A stretch of 64,000 bases of DNA from the sequence record PQ362703.1; one strand, written 5' to 3'. The notes under the pieces were generated by a model that saw only the letters and a program-made list of their open reading frames with translations, was not told where the DNA came from and made no database searches. Source of the stretch: Escherichia phage vB_EcoP_PW8. Each line of letters starts with the position of its first letter. Position 1 is the first letter of the stretch. Shown piece after piece: positions 2,280 through 38,477 of this stretch. Both the position numbers and the translations under genes were made by a program.

Positions 2280-2603
2280 ATGCACCTGTATTGCCTGCTT
2301 AGTTTTGCCACTACATGTTATTTATCCCCATACACGCTGGATAATATTCTGGCAGGTAAGGGCAGTGTTACCACCATCCTGTATGAACCAAGTGAAGAAG
2401 CAGAAGAGTTCATTGGTTCCTGTATCATGTTAGGAATACCTATTACCTTGACTAAGATAAATACTTCCATTGTAGTACCAGAAGGTAAGCTAGTGTATAT
2501 CTTCTCTTCCCAAGAACCCATGGTAGTTACTACCCTAACTGGTAGACTTATTACCCTCTATCCTTCTACCTCATATTTATCTAGCGACGAGTGTGCCCCA
2601 TGA
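2280..2603 (+). CDS. small early protein, divergent paralog 3
   Basis: 107-aa ORF with AAGGAAG RBS; degenerate copy of the motif (TILYEPSEEAEEFIGSCIML). Confidence 0.5.
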   Translation: MHLYCLLSFATTCYLSPYTLDNILAGKGSVTTILYEPSEEAEEFIGSCIMLGIPITLTKINTSIVVPEGKLVYIFSSQEPMVVTTLTGRLITLYPSTSYLSSDECAP

Positions 2604-2938
2604 ATAGAGTACTGTATCTCCATCAGTATAAGGATGAAGTCTCTGTTTACTCCGAGAATATCAATGAAGCTATTGAGTGGTTACTACTACAAGACTGTCA
2701 TATGCTTATGCTATCAGGAGATCTAGCAGATAGTACCCGTGGTTCAATTCTTCTACTTAATAGCCCGGCTAAGTTAACCATCCTTAATCCGGGGGAATTC
2801 ATAAAGATACCTGCTGGTGAATCTGCATTCTTGTTCTTTGAACCAAGGATAGAAGAAGGGTTTGTCGGGCTTACTATAGATAGTAGACCTAATAAAGATT
2901 TTAAAAGAGTAAGGATTATATCCCATGAAACTTACTAA
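2600..2938 (+). CDS. small early protein, divergent paralog 4
   Basis: Track ORF 2591..2938 trimmed to ATG at 2600 (ATGA overlap with previous stop); weak copy of motif. Confidence 0.45.
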   Translation: MNRVLYLHQYKDEVSVYSENINEAIEWLLLQDCHMLMLSGDLADSTRGSILLLNSPAKLTILNPGEFIKIPAGESAFLFFEPRIEEGFVGLTIDSRPNKDFKRVRIISHETY

Positions 2939-3251
2939 GATAGGTTATGCTGGTGGACCTATTTCCACTACCCATACAACCTTACAAGACCTTGTGCCAG
3001 GTAGGCTCACTCCTATTATCCTAGTACCGGACGAACAAACACTGCACGAAGTTAAAGGATTAGCTTTATTACTAAACAAGGAGGTTATCGTAGAAGTCCT
3101 TGAACCAGGAAAAGAACTACCATGGTCCTCCTACATGTACTCCCCCTGGCATGTGAATGCGGATAAGTACACTCTTACCTTTGGTATCACAAATGAACTG
3201 CAAACCCCTCACTTGGTATATGCTTCCTCCTATTTATCTGCTTATAAGTAA
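2925..3251 (+). CDS. small early protein, paralog family member 5
   Basis: 108-aa ORF; motif IILVPDEQTLHEVKGLALL. Confidence 0.5.
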   Translation: MKLTKIGYAGGPISTTHTTLQDLVPGRLTPIILVPDEQTLHEVKGLALLLNKEVIVEVLEPGKELPWSSYMYSPWHVNADKYTLTFGITNELQTPHLVYASSYLSAYK

Positions 3252-11303: not shown

Positions 11304-11633
11304 ATGAAAACTTTACTTAAAGGTGTTGCTGTAGCTGCACTGATAGCTTTGGTTCCAAATGCACAGGCAATTAAACCAGAACCAATTCTGGAAGGTGCTC
11401 AGGCTTACCTGGATGACACTCGTGATGCGTTCGGACAAGGATTCTTCATGGGCAGTATGATCTCTTACATCGAGAACACTAATAACTGTGTTCCTGAAGG
11501 TATTAAGTATTCAGTCATTCTGCCTAAGATTGCCAAAGTAGTTATTTACGACTCTGCAATCCTCAAGATGAAGAATACATCTCAAATTGTTGTGTACTCA
11601 GTACACAAGGCATACCCCTGCACCAAATCTTAA
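11304..11633 (+). CDS. secreted/periplasmic protein with signal peptide
   Basis: N-terminal MKTLLKGVAVAALIALVPNAQA signal-peptide-like segment. Confidence 0.55.
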   Translation: MKTLLKGVAVAALIALVPNAQAIKPEPILEGAQAYLDDTRDAFGQGFFMGSMISYIENTNNCVPEGIKYSVILPKIAKVVIYDSAILKMKNTSQIVVYSVHKAYPCTKS

Positions 11634-11667
11634 TCAGTAATTCCATTAGCTTTAGGAGAGTAAGTAA

Positions 11668-11874
11668 ATGGCAAGCATCGACTCCTTGACTGTATGTAAT
11701 TCACGTCAAGCTCGTAACTTTATTATCCGTGCCCTGAAAGCAGGTAACGTACCGTTCCTGACTTCATCACCAGGCATGGGTAAATCTGCAATTATTCGTT
11801 CTATTGCAGAAGAATTTGGTATGAAGCTGATAGACCATCGTCTGTCTACTTCTGCCCCGGAAGACCTTAACTAA
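11668..11874 (+). CDS. MoxR-like AAA+ ATPase, exon 1 (Walker A); ORF stop at 11872 lies inside a putative intron
   Basis: Walker A SSPGMGKS; ORF ends after 68 aa but the ATPase continues in ORF 12743..13588. Confidence 0.6.
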   Translation: MASIDSLTVCNSRQARNFIIRALKAGNVPFLTSSPGMGKSAIIRSIAEEFGMKLIDHRLSTSAPEDLN

Positions 11875-12745
11875 TAGGGCTTTGTGAGGGTGACCTCACA
11901 TCGAAAGCTATCTAAATGGGGAAACTCCTACTATTACAGGGAAACCATGATACACTCTGGTTTCCCAATAGAGGACAATCCCATGCTAAATATTAATGAA
12001 AGTTGGAAAGACATTGTTGGTTATGAAGGTTACTACGAAGTCTCTACGCATGGTCGTGTTAGAAATACCCATACAGGTATGATAAAGAACCAATGTGTAC
12101 AGACTAGCGGCAAGTATCTACAAGTTAGTTTGTGGAAAGGCAACAAAGAAAAAAGATGTTTAGTACATCGCTTAGTTGCTATAGCCTTCATTCCTAACCC
12201 CGAAGACAAGCCTCAAGTAAACCATTTAGACAAAAATGATAAGAACAACCATGTTCAAAATTTGGAATGGGTAACCATATCCGAGAATCATTTACATGCA
12301 TTTGCTAATGGTAGAAAAGGCTCCAAATCCCGACTAGGTGAAAAAACTAGTAAAGCCTCTCAGTATCGATATGTGTACTGGGATACCAAAAGAGCTGTTT
12401 GGAAAGCATCTATAAAGATAGACGGCAAAACAGTAAACATTGGTAGATTCAATACTGACCTAGAAGCAGCTTTAGCCGCTGATGAGGCAATTGATTCCTG
12501 GGGCTGGGATAGAATTAAAAACTTTCAATAATTAAATGCCTAACGACTATCGAAAACACGTAGTGATACGGAAGTGAGTAGAGTAGGGTGCAAGCCAATG
12601 GCACTCGAAAAGATAGCCACCCGGACAGGTAAAGCTGAGGGTGTTGATATAGTCTGGTCTGCGTAGTAATACGTAGCTGTATATGTCCAACTCGCATATA
12701 CGGGTAGAGCCTTGCAAACTCTACTGAACATAACGTAGTGGTTTG
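11869..12745 (+). mobile_element. putative group I intron carrying an HNH homing endonuclease ORF (boundaries approximate)
   Basis: Splits the ATPase between Walker A and Walker B; begins CTT|AACTAATAGGGC like the second intron; 3' part has stem-loops and blocks AACGACTATC, GAGTAGGG, GATATAGTCTGG shared with the intron at 33690. Confidence 0.55.
11983..12531 (+). CDS. intron-encoded HNH homing endonuclease
   Basis: WKDIVGYEGYYEVSTHGRV N-terminal module, HNH block QVNHLDKNDKNNHVQNLEWVT, C-terminal AP2-like block; track ORF 11884 trimmed to Met34 with AGAGGA RBS. Confidence 0.65.
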   Translation: MLNINESWKDIVGYEGYYEVSTHGRVRNTHTGMIKNQCVQTSGKYLQVSLWKGNKEKRCLVHRLVAIAFIPNPEDKPQVNHLDKNDKNNHVQNLEWVTISENHLHAFANGRKGSKSRLGEKTSKASQYRYVYWDTKRAVWKASIKIDGKTVNIGRFNTDLEAALAADEAIDSWGWDRIKNFQ

Positions 12746-13588
12746 CCATTCCGTAATGGTGACCGTGCAGAGTTTATTCCATTCGCTGACTTATTTCCCA
12801 TTGAGGGAGACGAAGTACCCGAAGGTTATAATGGCTGGCTCCTGTTCCTTGATGAGTTCAACTCAGCTAGGAAAGAAGTGGTAGCTGCTGCATACAAACT
12901 GATTCTCGACCGTATGACTGGTCAGAAAAAACTTCATCCCAATGTGATGATTGTTTGTGCTGGTAACAAAGCTACCGACCGTGCAATTGTTAACCCACTA
13001 GGTACTGCAATGCAGTCTCGTGTGGTTCACTTTGAAATGGAACTTAACTTCGACATCTTCGTTGAAGACGTAATGATTCCACAACAATGGGATGAACGTC
13101 TGGTTGCATTTCTACATGCTAACCCTGGCTATCTGCACGACTTCGACCCTGCTCATAAGAACAAAACATTCTGTTGTCCTCGTACCTGGGACTTTGTTAA
13201 CAAAGATCTCAAGAACCAACCAGAAGGTGCATTGCCTGACGAGGATTCCCTGTACTACAGTGGATTTGTTACACCAGGTAAGGCTGTAGAGTTTGTTCAG
13301 TTCACCCAGGTGTACAATCGTATCATTACGATCGAAAAGGTAGTCAAAGACCCATTGGGCTGTGCACTACCAGAAGATAACAACCTGTGCTGGGCTACCG
13401 TTAACCACTTGGCTAACAAAACTACTGAAGAGAACTTCGCTGATGTTCTTCAGTACATTGAACGCTTTAAAACGTTCACTCATAAGATTCTGTACTTCCG
13501 TACAGTAGGCAGAGCATTGCCAGAACTTCAGGCTACCCCTGAATGGCGTAAGGCTGCTGCTAATATCTCTCGTTACATTCACGGATAA
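12743..13588 (+). CDS. MoxR-like AAA+ ATPase, exon 2 (Walker B onward); true exon start about 12746
   Basis: Walker B LLFLDEFNSA; the track's TTG start is probably an artefact of the intron. Confidence 0.6.
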   Translation: MPFRNGDRAEFIPFADLFPIEGDEVPEGYNGWLLFLDEFNSARKEVVAAAYKLILDRMTGQKKLHPNVMIVCAGNKATDRAIVNPLGTAMQSRVVHFEMELNFDIFVEDVMIPQQWDERLVAFLHANPGYLHDFDPAHKNKTFCCPRTWDFVNKDLKNQPEGALPDEDSLYYSGFVTPGKAVEFVQFTQVYNRIITIEKVVKDPLGCALPEDNNLCWATVNHLANKTTEENFADVLQYIERFKTFTHKILYFRTVGRALPELQATPEWRKAAANISRYIHG

Positions 13589-13592
13589 AACA

Positions 13593-14768
13593 ATGAACCA
13601 ATTTCCTCAGCACACTCTTAGTGATGAACAACTCATGCGTGAGTATGACCGTATTCAAGCTCAGGCTTTCCTAGGACGCAGCGCAGCCTTCTTTGGTTCA
13701 TTACTATGTAGTCTTAAATTCTCATGGAAACGTGGGGATTGCCCCACTGCATGTACGGATGGGATAGAACTCCATTTCAATCCTGATTTCTTTATCTGGA
13801 TGTGTCCAGATGCAAGAGAAACAGTATTAATGCACGAACTATGGCATGTGGCATATCTACATGACATCCGTCGTGGAAGCCGTGACCCAGAAGTCTGGAA
13901 CCAGGCATGTGACCACTTCATTAACCTTCAGTTAGAAGAGGATGGTTATAAGTTCACTGGTATTGATGAAGGCATTTGCAAAGACCCCCAATATAAAGGA
14001 TGGGTCGAAGAAGACATCTATGATGACCTGATGAAGAACCCTCAGAAAAGGCAAAAGCCGTCAGGGGGTGCTGGAGCAGGTCTTGCTGGCGACATGAAAT
14101 CCCCCACTTCGGGGCAGTCCCAGGGTGCTGTCGTCAACAACGTAGTACGTGCAATGCAGAGCCAGAAGATGGCAGGTGGAACAATGCCTGGTAAGGGTGC
14201 TGGTCGTATGGAAGAGGTCATTACCCAATTCCTTAAACCAGTGGTTCCCTGGCAGGAAGTTCTGATGAATTTCTTTACCGACATTGATGACACTCATTAT
14301 ACGTGGGCCAGACCTAACCGTCGTTACACTGACATCTATCTACCTTCCCTGGAAGATGATGAAGGGCGATTACGACACTTAGCCTACTTTGAGGATGTAT
14401 CCGGTTCTATTAGTAGTGCTGACTCTCTGCGTTTTAACTCAGAGGTTGCCTACGTTAAGAGCCAGTTCAATCCTAAGAAGATGACCCTAATCACCTTCGA
14501 TGATGTTATCCAAGAAGAGATAGACATCACTGAAGAAGATACTTTTGAGGAGATTAAGATTACTGGTCGTGGTGGTACAAACCTGGAACCAGTACGTGAT
14601 TGGATTATTAAGAATAAGCCAACCGCTGCAATCATATTCTCTGATATGTATGTTCGTCCAATGGAAGAACTACCATTTGATATCCCAATCATCTGGTGTG
14701 TTCTGAATAATCCTAATGCTACCGTACCTTTTGGGGAGGTAGTTCATATCCCTAAAGGAATGAAATAA
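13593..14768 (+). CDS. VWA-domain protein with N-terminal HExxH metallopeptidase-like motif
   Basis: HELWH zincin-like motif; MIDAS-like DVSGSIS; immediately downstream of the MoxR-like ATPase, a known pairing. Confidence 0.65.
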   Translation: MNQFPQHTLSDEQLMREYDRIQAQAFLGRSAAFFGSLLCSLKFSWKRGDCPTACTDGIELHFNPDFFIWMCPDARETVLMHELWHVAYLHDIRRGSRDPEVWNQACDHFINLQLEEDGYKFTGIDEGICKDPQYKGWVEEDIYDDLMKNPQKRQKPSGGAGAGLAGDMKSPTSGQSQGAVVNNVVRAMQSQKMAGGTMPGKGAGRMEEVITQFLKPVVPWQEVLMNFFTDIDDTHYTWARPNRRYTDIYLPSLEDDEGRLRHLAYFEDVSGSISSADSLRFNSEVAYVKSQFNPKKMTLITFDDVIQEEIDITEEDTFEEIKITGRGGTNLEPVRDWIIKNKPTAAIIFSDMYVRPMEELPFDIPIIWCVLNNPNATVPFGEVVHIPKGMK

Positions 14769-33299: not shown

Positions 33300-33355
33300 G
33301 CAAACAGGAGTCTTTCTTTGGTTTGAAGGACTCCTAAATTAAATGAGGAAAAATA

Positions 33356-33691
33356 ATGACCGAAGTAATTCCCAATGATATGAACACTCAGCTAATCCTG
33401 ATTGCAGGATTCTCAGCGAGTGGTAAATCAGCATCACTGCGTAACATCCGGAACCAGGAACGCTGGCTCTATCTGAATACTGAAGCAGGTAAACGTCTGC
33501 CTTTCCGTAACAAATTCAATACCTACAACATTGAAGACCCATACCAGATTTGGGAAGCATTTGATGTTGCATCTCCTGGTGGAGAAATGGCAGATGATGT
33601 TGATGGTATCATTATTGACTCAGCAACCTTTATGATGGACATGCTGGAATCTCAGTATGTATTACCCTCTGCAAACACGCAAAAGGCTTAA
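33356..33691 (+). CDS. Sak4-like (AAA_24-type) ATPase, exon 1; ORF stop lies inside a putative intron
   Basis: Walker A GFSASGKS and Walker B GIIIDSATF; reading frame resumes after the HEG in ORF 34461. Confidence 0.5.
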   Translation: MTEVIPNDMNTQLILIAGFSASGKSASLRNIRNQERWLYLNTEAGKRLPFRNKFNTYNIEDPYQIWEAFDVASPGGEMADDVDGIIIDSATFMMDMLESQYVLPSANTQKA

Positions 33692-34488
33692 CTACTAAGG
33701 CCCGTTAGTCAGTAATGATTAACGATAACTGATTGAATTCAGGGAAACCCCTAACGTAAAGACGAGGGCAATCCTGAGCCAAGACTTAATCTTTCTCCGG
33801 TTTTTATTAACGGAGTTACAAACATGAGTAAGAAAAGATTCGGTAATGAATTACATCCTCTGTATTACACATGGTTAACCATTAAACAGAGATGCGATAA
33901 CCCTAAGCACGCTAGTTACAAAAACTATGGGGCTAGGGGGATAACTAGAGCAGAAGAGTTCTCTGACTTCAAAGTGTTTGCTGCCTATCTAGAATCATTA
34001 GATGGTTACGCAGACAGGGAGAGACTGGGTCTTACTTTAGATAGAATAGATGGTTCACTTGGCTATGTGCCAGGAAATCTGAGATGGGCAACTAGAACAA
34101 CTCAGGCCATTAATTCCAGAAAAAGAAGAACCAGTAAAGCTACCTACTTAGGTATAGGTTTAAACACCACTAAGAAAAAATGGTCAGCAAGAATCTGCAA
34201 TGGTAATGAAAGAATCTTTGTAGGTAATTTTGATTCCGAGATTGAAGCTCTGGAAGCTAGAAATGCCTACATTATTGAGCATGGATTACCTCATGCCATT
34301 CAAAAGATTAAGTAAGGTGCAACGACTATCCAGTAATGGAGTAGGGCAGAAGCTAATGCTGCTCGAAGCGGTCAGCATCCTATCGTAATTAACGAGGATG
34401 AAGATATAGTCTGGACTGCATGGAAACATGCAGATGCAGGTAATGCTGCTGGGAGTGTAGTTGCGTACGCTCTTGAACGTATCGTGGG
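33690..34488 (+). mobile_element. putative group I intron carrying a homing-endonuclease-like ORF (boundaries approximate)
   Basis: Begins CTT|AACTACTAAGGCC; shares blocks AACGACTATC, GGAGTAGGG, GATATAGTCTGG and 3' end ...ATCGTG with the intron at 11869. Confidence 0.5.
33824..34315 (+). CDS. intron-encoded homing-endonuclease-like protein (degenerate HNH_3 plus AP2-like domain)
   Basis: RIDGSLGYVPGNLRWATRTTQ resembles HNH_3 core; C-terminal AP2-like block YLGIGLNTTKKKWSARI...FDSEIEALEARNAYI. Confidence 0.55.
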   Translation: MSKKRFGNELHPLYYTWLTIKQRCDNPKHASYKNYGARGITRAEEFSDFKVFAAYLESLDGYADRERLGLTLDRIDGSLGYVPGNLRWATRTTQAINSRKRRTSKATYLGIGLNTTKKKWSARICNGNERIFVGNFDSEIEALEARNAYIIEHGLPHAIQKIK

Positions 34489-34904
34489 GGGATTTTGCAC
34501 AGTTCTTTAAGATACTGCTGCAACAGAAAGTCGTTAAGTTTGGTAAGCCAGTAATCATTACTGCTCATGCTAAAGACGAACTGGATGAAGCTGCTGGTGT
34601 GATGAAAACATTCATCCCAGTGAAAGGTTCCCTTAAGAATAACGGACTTGAAGCCTACTTCTCTACAGTGGTTTACGCAGAACGTGTAGACATCAAAGAA
34701 CTGGAGAAGTACGGAAACAAGATGTTAGAAATTACGGAAGAAGAACGTGACTTAGGATATAAGCACGTATTCCAGACCCGTCCAACCAAGAAGTCTGTTG
34801 GTAAACGACTTCGTTCCCCTATGGGTATGTTCGATAAGTCCGAGACTTACATTGATAACGATGCCCAGAAACTATTAGACCATCTGGCTGAATACTACGC
34901 TTAA
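34461..34904 (+). CDS. Sak4-like ATPase, exon 2 (true exon start about 34485-34491)
   Basis: C-terminal half of a ~245-aa AAA_24-like protein; the track's TTG start is probably an artefact of the intron. Confidence 0.5.
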   Translation: MRTLLNVSWGDFAQFFKILLQQKVVKFGKPVIITAHAKDELDEAAGVMKTFIPVKGSLKNNGLEAYFSTVVYAERVDIKELEKYGNKMLEITEEERDLGYKHVFQTRPTKKSVGKRLRSPMGMFDKSETYIDNDAQKLLDHLAEYYA

Positions 34905-34943
34905 GCGTTTGCCTGGTTGTTAATCACTTATTAGGAAAATCAT

Positions 34944-35747
34944 ATGTCATTGTTCAGTAATCTGAAAGAAAAAACCAAAAACGTTGAAGCTGTAAAAGAC
35001 TCCCTGGGTGGTGGTGGCTTCGGTGTAAAAGAGTCCGATATCTACACTGGTACTGTAAAAGTAGCTTACGTAGGTAAAGCTGATTCTGGTGCAGACTGGA
35101 TGCAGTTAATCATTGAAGACCTGAAAAACTCTGATGGAGTACCTGCCGGTGAGTTCCGTGCTCAGGTGTACTTCACTTCTGGTAATGCTAAAGGCAATAA
35201 GCCGACTTATGAGAAGAACGGTAAAGAATACTTCTTGCCTGGTTACACTGTCATTAACGACATGATGCTGATGGCTACTGGTACTGAGCTGCCTGAAGCT
35301 GACTTCGAAGAGAAGATTGTCAAAGTCTATGACTTCGATGCTAAAGCAGAAGTTAATAAGTCTGTCATGGTTCCGGTTGACCTGGTAGGCCAGACTGTTA
35401 CCTTCGCTCTGGAAAAGGTTCTGGAATCCAAGCAGGTTAAAGGTGACAACGGTTACGTTGATTCCGGGGAAACTCGTGAAGTAAACGAGATTCAGAAAGT
35501 GTTTCACTCGGAACTGCTGGTCACAGTCGTCGAGGCTCAGGAAGCAGAGAAGGCTGAGAAAGAACTGACCCCAGAACTGGCTGTATTCTATGCAGCATGG
35601 CTGGAAAAGAACAAAGGCAAGACTCGTGACAAGACCAAGGGTTCTGCTGGTGGTAATGGTAAAGGTGGCTTGCCTCCTAAGCCTGGTGCAGGTACAGGTA
35701 CAGGTACTACTCCTGCTGGTGGTAAATCACTGTTCGGTAAACGCTAA
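34944..35747 (+). CDS. single-stranded DNA-binding protein (N4 gp45-like), Gly-rich C-terminal tail
   Basis: 267 aa (N4 SSB is about 265 aa); position at end of replication module; assignment by size and synteny. Confidence 0.45.
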   Translation: MSLFSNLKEKTKNVEAVKDSLGGGGFGVKESDIYTGTVKVAYVGKADSGADWMQLIIEDLKNSDGVPAGEFRAQVYFTSGNAKGNKPTYEKNGKEYFLPGYTVINDMMLMATGTELPEADFEEKIVKVYDFDAKAEVNKSVMVPVDLVGQTVTFALEKVLESKQVKGDNGYVDSGETREVNEIQKVFHSELLVTVVEAQEAEKAEKELTPELAVFYAAWLEKNKGKTRDKTKGSAGGNGKGGLPPKPGAGTGTGTTPAGGKSLFGKR

Positions 35748-38322: not shown

Positions 38323-38398
38323 TACCCGGTAGGCTTAGTGGTAAAGCCCCACTAGTAAACCAGCTAGGACGCAGGTTCGAATCCTGTCCGGGTAACCA
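38323..38398 (+). tRNA. tRNA-like gene with encoded CCA; anticodon arm atypical
   Basis: Acceptor TACCCGG/CCGGGTA, D arm GGCT-TAGTGGTAA-AGCC, T arm GCAGG-TTCGAAT-CCTGT, 3' ACCA; anticodon region folds only as a 4-bp stem with an 8-nt loop. Confidence 0.45.
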
Positions 38399-38403
38399 TT
38401 TAT

Positions 38404-38477
38404 GCCCACTTAGCTTAGACGGGGAAAGCAACCGACTAATAATCGGAAGGTCACTGGTTCAAATCCAGTAGTGGGTA
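38404..38477 (+). tRNA. tRNA gene, apparent anticodon AAU (unusual; assignment uncertain)
   Basis: Acceptor GCCCACT/AGTGGGT, D arm GCTT-AGACGGGGA-AAGC, anticodon stem (A)CCGA/TCGG(A) with loop CTAATAA, T arm ACTGG-TTCAAAT-CCAGT. Confidence 0.5.

Follow-up and report, generated by a model that had tools for sequence, protein, structure and literature searches.

Two open reading frames of Escherichia phage vB_EcoP_PW8 (PQ362703.1), at 33356-33691 and 34461-34904, read as the two ends of a single ATPase gene, which raises the question of what separates them and how an intact product could still be made. The window, that is the whole 64,000-nt stretch of DNA that was analyzed, derives from a Gamaleyavirus (G7C/N4-like) coliphage. 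A preliminary description had proposed that a group I intron carrying a homing-endonuclease-like ORF splits a Sak4-like gene at this position.

As read unspliced, the upstream ORF contains both of the motifs that had been assigned to it, Walker A GFSASGKS and Walker B GIIIDSATF, and the downstream ORF is the C-terminal portion of the same Sak4-like protein. Excision of the insert in silico restores the reading frame and yields an AAA_24/Sak4-like protein of 250 aa that matches Pfam AAA_24 (PF13479; E 5.1e-11) over residues 14-218. This match crosses the exon junction, confirming that the two ORFs belong to one gene; the proposal of a single joined protein thus stands, with a length of 250 aa once spliced instead of the ~245 aa given before. 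Orthologues of the host ATPase are named 'Sak4-like ssDNA annealing protein' in RefSeq.

The extent of the insert was established by the previously recommended comparison with intronless Sak4-like homologues, which confirms the insertion and fixes its length. In the alignment, the gap relative to the uninterrupted pSb-1 gene is exactly 796 nt, and the same 796-nt indel is obtained with all four intronless homologues (pSb-1, ShWW44, 24-32N and K57alpha1.2). Only one placement, 33689-34484, puts a U before the 5' splice site and a G as the final intron base. The insert had been located at 33690-34488, which is correct as to its existence but misses the 5' boundary by 1 nt and the 3' boundary by 4 nt: that cut (799 nt) would remove a Gly codon and produce KAWDF instead of the conserved KAWGDF. 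The gene is accordingly divided as follows.

33356..33688, + strand: exon 1 of the Sak4-like (AAA_24, N4 gp44-like) ATPase gene, with Walker A and Walker B, ending in ...AAG GCU
33689..34484, + strand: group I intron, subgroup IA-like, 796 nt, starting UAACUACUAAGGCC and ending UUGAACGUAUCG with 34484 as terminal G; an indel relative to intronless genes
34485..34904, + strand: exon 2 of the Sak4-like gene, starting UGG GGG GAU (W G D)

The insertion lies in phase 0, between an Ala and a Trp codon (QKA|WGDF). The predicted spliced mRNA reads ...CAAAAGGCU|UGGGGGGAU at the junction, i.e. GCU|UGG, where the intronless allele of pSb-1 and ShWW44 has ACGCAAAAGGCGTGGGGTGATTTTGCA; its predicted product is a protein of ~28 kDa with the junction peptide QKAWGDFAQFFK. 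U33688, the last exon base, forms a U·G pair with G33699 inside P1 (GGCUU/AGGCC), and the 3' end UUGAACGUAUCG agrees with the family consensus UGAACAUAACG of seven other phage introns. P10 is weak. An intein and a free-standing HEG between two genes were both rejected, because the first codon of the insert is an in-frame stop and the intronless homologues have one continuous gene.

Within these boundaries, the following RNA elements were assigned.

33685..33702, + strand: P1, exon GGCU plus intron U (33685-33689) pairing with the internal guide AGGCC (33698-33702), U33688 being in the U·G pair
33703..33724, + strand: P2 hairpin of 9 bp with a GUAA loop
33729..33735, + strand: P3 5' strand CUGAUUG, partner 34369-34375 (CGGUCAG), compensatory changes in 6 of 7 pairs
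33739..33777, + strand: P4-P5 domain, P4 UCAGGG/UCCUGA and P5 CCCCU/GAGGG; Rfam local match 33739-33844, 30.1 bits
33778..33794, + strand: P6 5' strand GCC (33778-33780), AAG internal loop and P6a 5' strand ACUUAAUCUUU (33784-33794)
34303..34318, + strand: P6a 3' strand AAAGAUUAAGU (34303-34313) and P6 3' strand GGU (34316-34318)
34324..34328, + strand: P7 5' strand GACUA, partner 34407-34411 (UAGUC), in a pseudoknot with P3; invariant in all six aligned introns
34329..34364, + strand: P7.1 (UCCA-GUAA-UGGA, 34329-34340) and P7.2 (GGGCAG...CUGCUC, 34344-34364)
34369..34411, + strand: P3 3' strand, P8 hairpin (34376-34400), J8/7 and P7 3' strand; Rfam local match 34206-34433, 43.9 bits
34416..34472, + strand: P9 (GAAA loop), P9.1 and P9.2

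A search with the group I covariance model, which had been suggested as a check, detects both halves of this structure: Rfam RF00028 gives two local matches on complementary halves of the intron, of 43.9 bits (E 1.2e-9) and 30.1 bits (E 1.8e-5), which surface only under an E-value threshold. No match in the window reaches the gathering score of 50 bits in one piece, since the model is interrupted in P6a by the ORF-bearing insertion of 502 nt; the homologous SSE121 intron scores 63.8 bits, above that threshold. In the first of these half-matches, model positions 1-138 are wrongly aligned to the final part of the ORF. The local closure of P6 that Rfam proposes, at 33841-33844 inside the ORF, was rejected in favor of GGU 34316-34318, since the latter is adjoined by a perfect 11-bp P6a (33784-33794/34303-34313) and the same P6-AAG/AA-P6a design recurs in the introns of CB7, Vi06, PhAER-4 and the N4-like contig L018. 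The P6a 3' strand coincides with the last codons of the ORF and the start of its stop codon.

The fold is also supported by energy and covariation. The HEG-deleted RNA has a folding energy z of -5.5 relative to shuffles; this value and the Rfam E-values lie well outside what chance would produce. Its single-sequence minimum free energy fold recovers P1, P2, P6/P6a, P8 and P9, not P3-P5 and the pseudoknot. RNAalifold, applied de novo to the HEG-deleted introns of six phages, finds P3, P4, P5, P7.1, P7.2, P8, P9 and P9.2. Once P6 and the P7 pseudoknot are included, 93.4% of cells in the six-intron alignment can pair, as opposed to 38-44% with slid partners, and double (compensatory) changes occur in 30 of 54 pairs, compared with 5-9 in the slid controls; the observed values are reached in none of 500 shuffles. 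Among the individual helices, three of four pairs in P7.1 and five of six in P7.2 show such changes. P7 is invariant and therefore uninformative for covariation. This alignment excludes PhAER-4, because of its long P5 extension, and the first SSE121 intron, because the P4' strand was not found in its 5' half.

Three blocks, AACGACTATC, GAGTAGGG and GATATAGTCTGG, had been reported as common to this insert and a second one elsewhere in the window, and all are found in both. They correspond to J6/7 with the P7 5' strand (AACGACUA), to the lead into the P7.2 5' strand (GUAGGG) and to J8/7 with the P7 3' strand (GAUAUAGUC). The preliminary description had made its reading depend on P3/P7-type pairings of these blocks, and P3 and P7 pair here as in every group I model. 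The extra helices P7.1 and P7.2, which mark subgroup IA under the Michel-Westhof classification, are present between P7 and P3'. The predicted structure is thus a full subgroup-IA group I fold, comprising P1-P9.2, the P3/P7 pseudoknot, P7.1 and P7.2.

Exact insertion, conformity to the splice-site rules and a fold backed by covariation all bear out the proposal of a group I intron. We consider 33689-34484, at a probability of about 0.9, to be a mobile, self-splicing phage group I intron of subgroup IA (IA2-like), inserted in phase 0 in a Gamaleyavirus Sak4-like gene and encoding what is most likely a homing endonuclease. By analogy, the intron would be expected to splice in PW8. The primary transcript would fold into P1-P9.2 and then take the route established for group I introns, in which a free guanosine held by P7 would attack after U33688, in the U·G pair of P1. 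The released exon 1 would then attack after the terminal G34484, giving a ligated mRNA for the intact 250-aa ATPase. The ORF, placed in the P6a loop, leaves the core undisturbed. In mixed infections, the ORF product, most likely a homing endonuclease, would introduce a cut or nick close to the insertion site of intronless alleles, whose recombinational repair would copy the intron in.

The same intron is already present in public sequences. PhAPEC7 (NC_024790), SP5M (NC_070869) and RudolfBernhard_Bas96 (PQ850623) carry it in the same gene, at the same site and with the same 796-nt length, and their ORFs are 95.5-98.6% identical to that of PW8, although the PhAPEC7 ORF has a premature stop. Intron RNA identity to these three phages is 99.0-99.3%, compared with 91.1-92.3% for the exons, which are closer (95.6-96.1%) to those of the intronless phages pSb-1 and ShWW44; conversely, the exons of intronless K57alpha1.2 are 98.1% identical to those of intron-bearing SP5M. 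Nearly identical intron RNA flanked by exons that are nearer to intronless phages indicates recent horizontal spread, and the distribution of the intron requires horizontal movement. All three RNA substitutions relative to Bas96 and SP5M keep pairing or bring it closer to consensus: the only one in the 5' half, 33723 C>T, changes a G-C pair in P2 to G·U, and 34469 G>A in the relatives turns U·G into U-A. Orthologous introns occupy the same KA|WG site in two distant N4-like contigs, L017 and L018, in which every helix is kept through compensatory changes, including a P1 guide that tracks the exon (AGCUU/AGGCU in L017).

Annotation of these relatives is uneven. The host gene is a two-piece joined CDS in PhAPEC7 and Bas96, and the SP5M record lists the exons as separate hypothetical proteins. 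Public records term the intron only 'putative', the PhAPEC7 ORF being described as 'encoded in putative intron', and our literature searches on group I introns of Gamaleyavirus and on a Bas96 intron gave no result. The PW8 element is an ordinary mobile phage intron, real and well formed, and already known at this site from sister-phage records. It leaves the current understanding of group I introns unchanged and is a further example of how introns of the homing type move between closely related N4-like coliphages.

The loop closed by P6a holds the remaining features of the intron.

33795..33815, + strand: hairpin CUCCG...CGGAG, read from the sequence, with a GGAG Shine-Dalgarno in its 3' strand, 8 nt upstream of the ORF AUG
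33824..34315, + strand: intron ORF of 163 aa in the P6a loop, with an N-terminal HNH_3-derived module lacking the catalytic His (motif TLDRID...GNLRW) and a C-terminal AP2 DNA-binding domain

The hairpin, which holds the ribosome-binding site, may regulate the ORF. The 163-aa reading frame itself fits the homing-endonuclease-like ORF that had been noted within the insert. PHROG families labelled 'HNH endonuclease' match it with E 2.6e-39, and hhalign aligns it to an HNH_3 protein with 95% probability. Its C-terminal domain shows the three-stranded sheet packed on a helix and the likeness to plant AP2/ERF proteins that characterize AP2 domains, and a PDB sequence search returns a marginal AP2 match alone. 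Compared with the HNH-AP2 homing endonucleases (Pfam HNH_3 + AP2, exemplified by the ORF of the 11868-12735 intron), the protein lacks NUMOD4 and a Pfam HNH_3 match, has its catalytic His replaced and possesses a conserved, distinct N-terminal helical region (Y..W....RC.NP...Y.NYGARGI).

These features leave room for another reading of the ORF, in which the intron splices but the product is not a nuclease: a His-less HNH relic that binds DNA or RNA as a regulator or in a maturase-like role, the intron being spread by ordinary recombination or by 'collaborative homing' with the help of another endonuclease. Neither Pfam, even at E 10, nor NCBIfam, at E 1, gives any match to the ORF, HNH and HNH_3 included; the fold match to a nuclease is weak; and AP2 domains alone bind DNA. 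Moreover, no His is invariant or nearly so when 36 diverse homologues are compared; Thr71 of the ORF aligns with the catalytic His of HNH_3, and the family has Thr or Ser at that position. On the other hand, D73, R74, N85, Q94 and N97 are invariant or nearly so among the homologues and fall in a putative beta-beta-alpha element, the pattern expected of a metal site. Linkage to the target gene is also typical of homing endonucleases: a relative of the ORF lies free-standing next to the Sak4-like gene of Vibrio phage 1.097.O, and in three further Schitoviridae lineages the ORF is intron-borne, at the very same KA|WG position. Purifying selection on the ORF in three phages, together with the nonsense mutation in PhAPEC7, follows the course expected of a homing cycle, and the distribution of the intron is incongruent with the exon tree. 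We regard a non-nuclease product as unlikely, if a serious alternative, and nuclease activity as the probable function. More tentatively, the ORF could represent a widespread, uncharacterized HNH_3-AP2 branch, with at least 344 relatives, that lacks the catalytic His and is still a nuclease or nickase in homing, by way of a non-canonical active site. If so, the free-standing gene of Vibrio phage 1.097.O and the KA|WG intron ORFs would form a natural series showing how mobile introns arise when group I introns join with free-standing endonuclease genes. The association of this His-less family with the Sak4-like gene across Schitoviridae may merit a biochemical look.

Far less probable is a dead, non-splicing insertion, with the ATPase made as two associating polypeptides, as is reportedly the case for NrdA of phage Aeh1. 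Exon 1 does run into an in-frame UAA where the intron starts, and a GGGAG 5 nt upstream of UUG 34461 might in principle allow initiation of a C-terminal fragment. Such a fragment would, however, bear 8 foreign residues, and the GGGAG/UUG sits within the P9.2 stem, where it represents the family-wide GGG of that helix. Precedents exist, as non-splicing insertions are documented in G7C-like phages (10.1101/542787) and in CB7 (PMC7344957): g39 of the G7C-like phages contains an intron-like insertion that does not splice, which in phage 10GB makes gene 39 a two-polypeptide case, and a different intron of these phages, in g16, does splice (10.1101/542787). Against this, the entire catalytic core of the PW8 intron is intact and kept by compensatory changes, the 5' splice site has its U·G and the intron its terminal G, and the RNA parts have diverged ten-fold less than the exons (1% versus 8-9%). 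The self-splicing intron thus remains our preferred reading, and the two ORFs are to be annotated as one gene, join 33356..33688,34485..34904.

The second insert in the window had been placed at 11869-12745; an intron is indeed present there, with boundaries that direct comparison sets at 11868-12735.

11868..12735, + strand: the other group I intron, 868 nt, in a MoxR-like 'ATPase' gene (St11Ph5 gp24 homologue), carrying a NUMOD4-HNH_3-AP2 ORF

The shared start that had been described is confirmed, both introns beginning UAACUA.UA.GG after an exon ending in ...CU, and both end in GAAC.UA.CG. The idea of two copies of one intron family holds at the level of structure and not as close kinship, the ribozymes being 56% identical. 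More precisely, the two are 56.5% identical in the ribozyme, either of them is 52-63% identical to the introns of Vequintavirinae, T7-like and Shewanella phages, and the 33689-34484 intron is 58.5-63% identical to those of Vi06, Shewanella 1/40, CB7 and rV5. That the two are recent copies of one element transposed within the genome is hardly credible, since, for all their common ends, their three common core blocks and an AP2-containing ORF in the P6 loop of each, they are less alike than the 33689-34484 intron is to introns of those other phages, the blocks are invariant in all six aligned introns and across the whole family, the N-terminal modules of the ORFs differ (NUMOD4 + HNH_3 + AP2 versus a His-less module + AP2), and each occurs alone in other Gamaleyaviruses, the 11868-12735 type only in pSb-1 and the 33689-34484 type only in SP5M, PhAPEC7 and Bas96, which lack the former. 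The two introns are best seen as independent acquisitions, with no duplication. The ATPase gene around 11868-12735 likewise needs a joined annotation, and pieces of such split genes are still listed as separate hypothetical proteins in public records (SP5M, pSb-1).

Related introns are found in other genes and phage families. The NrdA intron of CB7 (CB7_201/202/203), whose 3' core is ~70% identical, forms the same helices, P7.1 and P7.2 included, as do the related Vequintavirinae introns that interrupt the terminase gene of rV5 and the DNA polymerase gene of SSE121; the same P6-AAG/AA-P6a stem surrounds an ORF of 163 aa, and the 3' end, UUGAACGUAACG, is shared. Host genes and phage families differ from those of the PW8 intron, and the CB7 ORF encodes an unrelated HNH protein (BLASTP E = 1). 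Splicing of the CB7 NrdA intron was demonstrated by RT-PCR (PMC7344957), and for rV5 the terminase CDS is annotated as a join of three pieces. The T7-like DNA polymerase intron of Salmonella phage Vi06, also present in Bas93 and Bas94, has 63% ribozyme identity, with P4 and P6 identical in sequence (UCAGGG...CCUGA GCC AAG) and the same ORF-enclosing P6a design; it differs in its host gene, in lacking P2 and in its ORF, an endonuclease VII-type protein that reaches into the 3' core.

The td, nrdB and sunY introns of T4, the textbook cases in phages, are self-splicing IA2 introns with P7.1 and P7.2, an ORF looped out from a peripheral helix and endonuclease-mediated homing, their ORFs encoding GIY-YIG (I-TevI, I-TevII) or HNH (I-TevIII) enzymes. 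The PW8 intron would share this plan and differ in the type of ORF. Short matches of at least 99% identity also occur in Staphylococcus and Bacillus phages, which presumably are other phage introns matched over their conserved P7-P9 core.

The segment 33689-34484 of the window is a genuine, intact group I intron carrying an endonuclease-like ORF. Megablast searches of phage genomes with window segments 33300-34950 and 11600-13650 place the phage in the genus Gamaleyavirus, the G7C-like, N4-like coliphages of the family Schitoviridae; among the records listed, the best matches of both segments are only ~95% identical. In line with the preliminary description, ORF 33356-33691, with Walker A motif GFSASGKS and Walker B motif IIIDS, is continued as the same protein by ORF 34461-34904, and a 163-aa ORF (33824-34315) separates these two ATPase pieces. 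The interrupted gene, counterpart of N4 gp44, is flanked by genes for a DNA primase and an ssDNA-binding protein, and is named "Sak4-like ssDNA annealing protein" or "AAA family ATPase" in RefSeq. Two tRNA genes lie side by side on the + strand at 38323-38395 and 38404-38477 (Rfam tRNA, 40.7 and 64.8 bits).

Intron borders were determined using the continuous 753-nt gene of phage pSb-1 as intronless reference, to which the window gene aligns with a single gap, exactly 796 nt long. A single-base repeat at its ends permits two placements with identical product, but only with 33689-34484 does the 5' splice site follow a U and the intron end in G; this placement is also required by the 3'-terminal motif of related introns, UGAAC(A/G)UA(A/U)CG^ (caret, splice site). 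The predicted splice product of 250 aa (...NTQKA^WGDFAQFF...) is colinear with that of pSb-1, and its residues 14-218 match Pfam AAA_24. The inserts proposed earlier stand, with corrected borders: removal of 33690-34488 (799 nt) would delete a conserved Gly, and for the insert placed at 11869-12745 the same method gives 11868-12735 (868 nt). If a C-terminal fragment were made independently, no start could be envisaged for it other than the UUG that opens ORF 34461-34904. The GGGAG located 5 nt upstream of this UUG (window 34451-34463) lies within the P9.2 stem, whose conserved GGG probably accounts for it by coincidence.

The intron folds into the following elements.

Structural elements of the intron in the Sak4-like gene (window coordinates, + strand; caret, splice site)
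33685-33689 (GGCU^U) with 33698-33702 (AGGCC): P1, with U33688·G at the cleavage site
33703-33724: P2, 9 bp with GUAA loop
33729-33735 with 34369-34375: P3
within 33739-33777: P4 and P5
33778-33780 (GCC) with 34316-34318 (GGU): P6
AAG / AA: internal loop between P6 and P6a
33784-33794 (ACUUAAUCUUU) with 34303-34313 (AAAGAUUAAGU): P6a, 11 perfect pairs
34324-34328 with 34407-34411: P7
34329-34340: P7.1
34344-34364: P7.2
34376-34400: P8
34416-34433: P9, GAAA loop
34436-34449: P9.1
34453-34472: P9.2
34484: terminal G

The presence of P7.1 and P7.2 assigns the intron to subgroup IA of the Michel-Westhof classification. Its ORF is looped out of P6a, the 3' strand of which is the end of the ORF. The introns of CB7, Vi06, PhAER-4 and the metagenome contig L018 likewise loop out their ORFs from P6a and share the P6-AAG/AA-P6a design. 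The ribosome-binding site of the ORF, GGAG (33812-33815, 8 nt upstream of AUG), is sequestered in the 3' arm of a hairpin, CUCCG-N11-CGGAG (33795-33815), which may restrain translation of the ORF from the precursor.

At the gathering score, Rfam returned no match for the intron. With an E-value threshold, RF00028 matches 34206-34433 (J6/7 to P9; 43.9 bits, E 1.2e-9) and 33739-33844 (P4-P6; 30.1 bits, E 1.8e-5), in two halves because the model is split by 502 nt carrying the ORF. The 3' core shows 70-78% identity to ~200 phage records, in genes known or annotated as interrupted, among them nrdA of CB7, terminase genes of rV5 and Shewanella phage 1/40, T7-like DNA polymerase (Vi06, Bas93/94), nrdD of phi92 and DNA polymerase of SSE121, whose homologous intron clears the Rfam threshold in one match (63.8 bits). 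PhAER-4, rV5 and Shewanella 1/40 carry extra ORF-less group I introns beside those compared (50-90 bits in Rfam; loci L006 1674-1953, L008 35-313, and L011 135-333 and 2070-2271). Megablast of 33300-34950 also matched phages of Staphylococcus (73 records) and Bacillus (9 records), and in 43 records overall the best match was at least 99% identical; if the two sets coincide, these matches are short and presumably represent the conserved P7-P9 core of other phage group I introns.

Six introns (both window introns and those of CB7, rV5, Shewanella 1/40 and Vi06) were aligned after removal of the ORF-bearing loop. Unguided RNAalifold recovered P3, P4, P5, P7.1, P7.2, P8, P9 and P9.2, with compensatory changes in 28 of 47 pairs. 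After P6 and the P7 pseudoknot had been added by hand, standard pairs occupied 93.4% of cells, versus 38-44% with the 3' partners slid by 1-3 columns, and double changes were present in 30 of 54 pairs, the slid controls giving 5-9. In 500 column shuffles, the observed values were never reached. P7 (GACUA/UAGUC) is invariant across the six introns, and the conserved blocks singled out in the preliminary description do form P3/P7-type pairings.

Tracing the contigs of ORF-protein homologues revealed the same intron at the identical KA^WG site of far more diverged Sak4-like genes in two N4-like metagenome contigs, L017 (71.9 kb; intron 2345-3175) and L018 (79.8 kb; about 2345-3170). The ORFs are 68% and 50% identical, respectively. 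Both introns give Rfam half-matches (45.5 and 38.1 bits) and retain every helix checked through compensatory changes; in P1 of L017, exon G to A is paired with guide C to U. In the N4-like Vibrio phage 1.097.O (MG592470; locus L019), the Sak4-like gene is uninterrupted, and a homologous ORF (2501-2974, 45% identical) is free-standing and overlaps the stop codon of that gene. The endonuclease-like family thus accompanies the Sak4-like gene with or without an intron.

Among the ~58 Gamaleyavirus records in the collection, the whole 1.65-kb megablast query is present in five, representing three phages (SP5M, PhAPEC7 and Bas96), while 35 other genus records listed match in two pieces with 51-52% coverage and hence lack the insert. 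Compared with these three phages, the window is 99.0-99.3% identical in the ribozyme parts, 95.5-98.6% in the ORF and 91.1-92.3% in the exons. Its exons are nearer to those of intronless phages (pSb-1, 95.6%; ShWW44, 96.1%), and intronless K57alpha1.2 and intron-bearing SP5M share 98.1% exon identity. As the first exon differences also occur within 10 nt of either junction, intron presence cuts across exon phylogeny. This pattern would be as expected from homing with short co-conversion tracts, or from repeated precise loss; the intron is evidently mobile. The base at -1 occupies the wobble position of an Ala codon; intronless alleles have G, A or T there, and every intron-bearing allele compared has T. 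All three RNA substitutions preserve structure (P2 G-C to G·U; P9.2 U·G to U-A; one towards the family consensus).

The 163-aa ORF has no match in Pfam or NCBIfam; PHROGs labelled "HNH endonuclease" or "restriction endonuclease" match it strongly (E 2.6e-39). It has at least 344 relatives, most of them unnamed and some with a recorded AP2 domain. Alignment of 36 relatives contains no conserved histidine; R23, Y32, Y35, G36, G39, R74, Y81, N85, Q94 and N97 are invariant. The ORF of the other window intron consists of NUMOD4, HNH_3 and AP2 (Pfam), and hhalign aligns the two proteins with 95% probability across the HNH core plus AP2, with the HNH_3 catalytic His opposite Thr71. Together, these observations identify the protein as an HNH_3-AP2 derivative with an altered active site; it may still cut DNA. 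Purifying selection acts on the ORF: its product is the same in the window and SP5M despite 1.4% nucleotide divergence, and that of Bas96 differs by two residues. The PhAPEC7 ORF (L016 525-1016) carries W88stop and four other substitutions, including D76G, A95T and E144K, next to an intact ribozyme (99.3% identical). The pattern suggests an endonuclease gene undergoing decay while its intron still functions, as expected from the homing-endonuclease life cycle, or else a sequencing error.

An intron of this kind, and the same element in sister phages, is already on record: the PhAPEC7 record joins both exons and notes that a putative intron encodes the ORF, and the Bas96 record joins the exons too. 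The related NrdA intron of CB7 splices (PMC7344957); for other genes of G7C-like phages, an intron that splices (g16) and a non-splicing insertion (g39) have been described (bioRxiv 10.1101/542787). Our literature search found no paper on splicing of the intron described here. Only two features are mildly unusual: an HNH-AP2 ORF family that lacks the His, and the fact that this family alternates, beside one and the same gene, between a free-standing and an intron-borne form.

Both window introns are preceded by ...CU, begin with UAACUA, finish with GAAC.UA.CG, and have an ORF in the P6 loop and an identical helix set. The preliminary description saw in them two copies of one intron family. The family assignment holds, but the three shared blocks show little or no variation across the six aligned introns, the two ribozymes are 56.5% identical (58.5-63% for the Sak4-like gene intron versus those of CB7, rV5, Shewanella and Vi06), and each is found without its partner in sister phages. 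Judged from these comparisons, both belong to one widespread phage IA intron family and were acquired separately. The other intron sits between a Leu and a Ser codon of a 350-aa MoxR-like 'ATPase' gene, a homologue of St11Ph5 gp24. Among public Gamaleyaviruses it occurs in pSb-1 only, whose annotation still treats the exons as two distinct genes (gp62, gp65). Escherichia phage U1G (9824-11881) has a different insertion in this ATPase gene: the match is broken into three segments, and two 'ATPase' and two 'HNH endonuclease' CDS are annotated. This insertion may represent a further intron or homing endonuclease gene at or near the same site.
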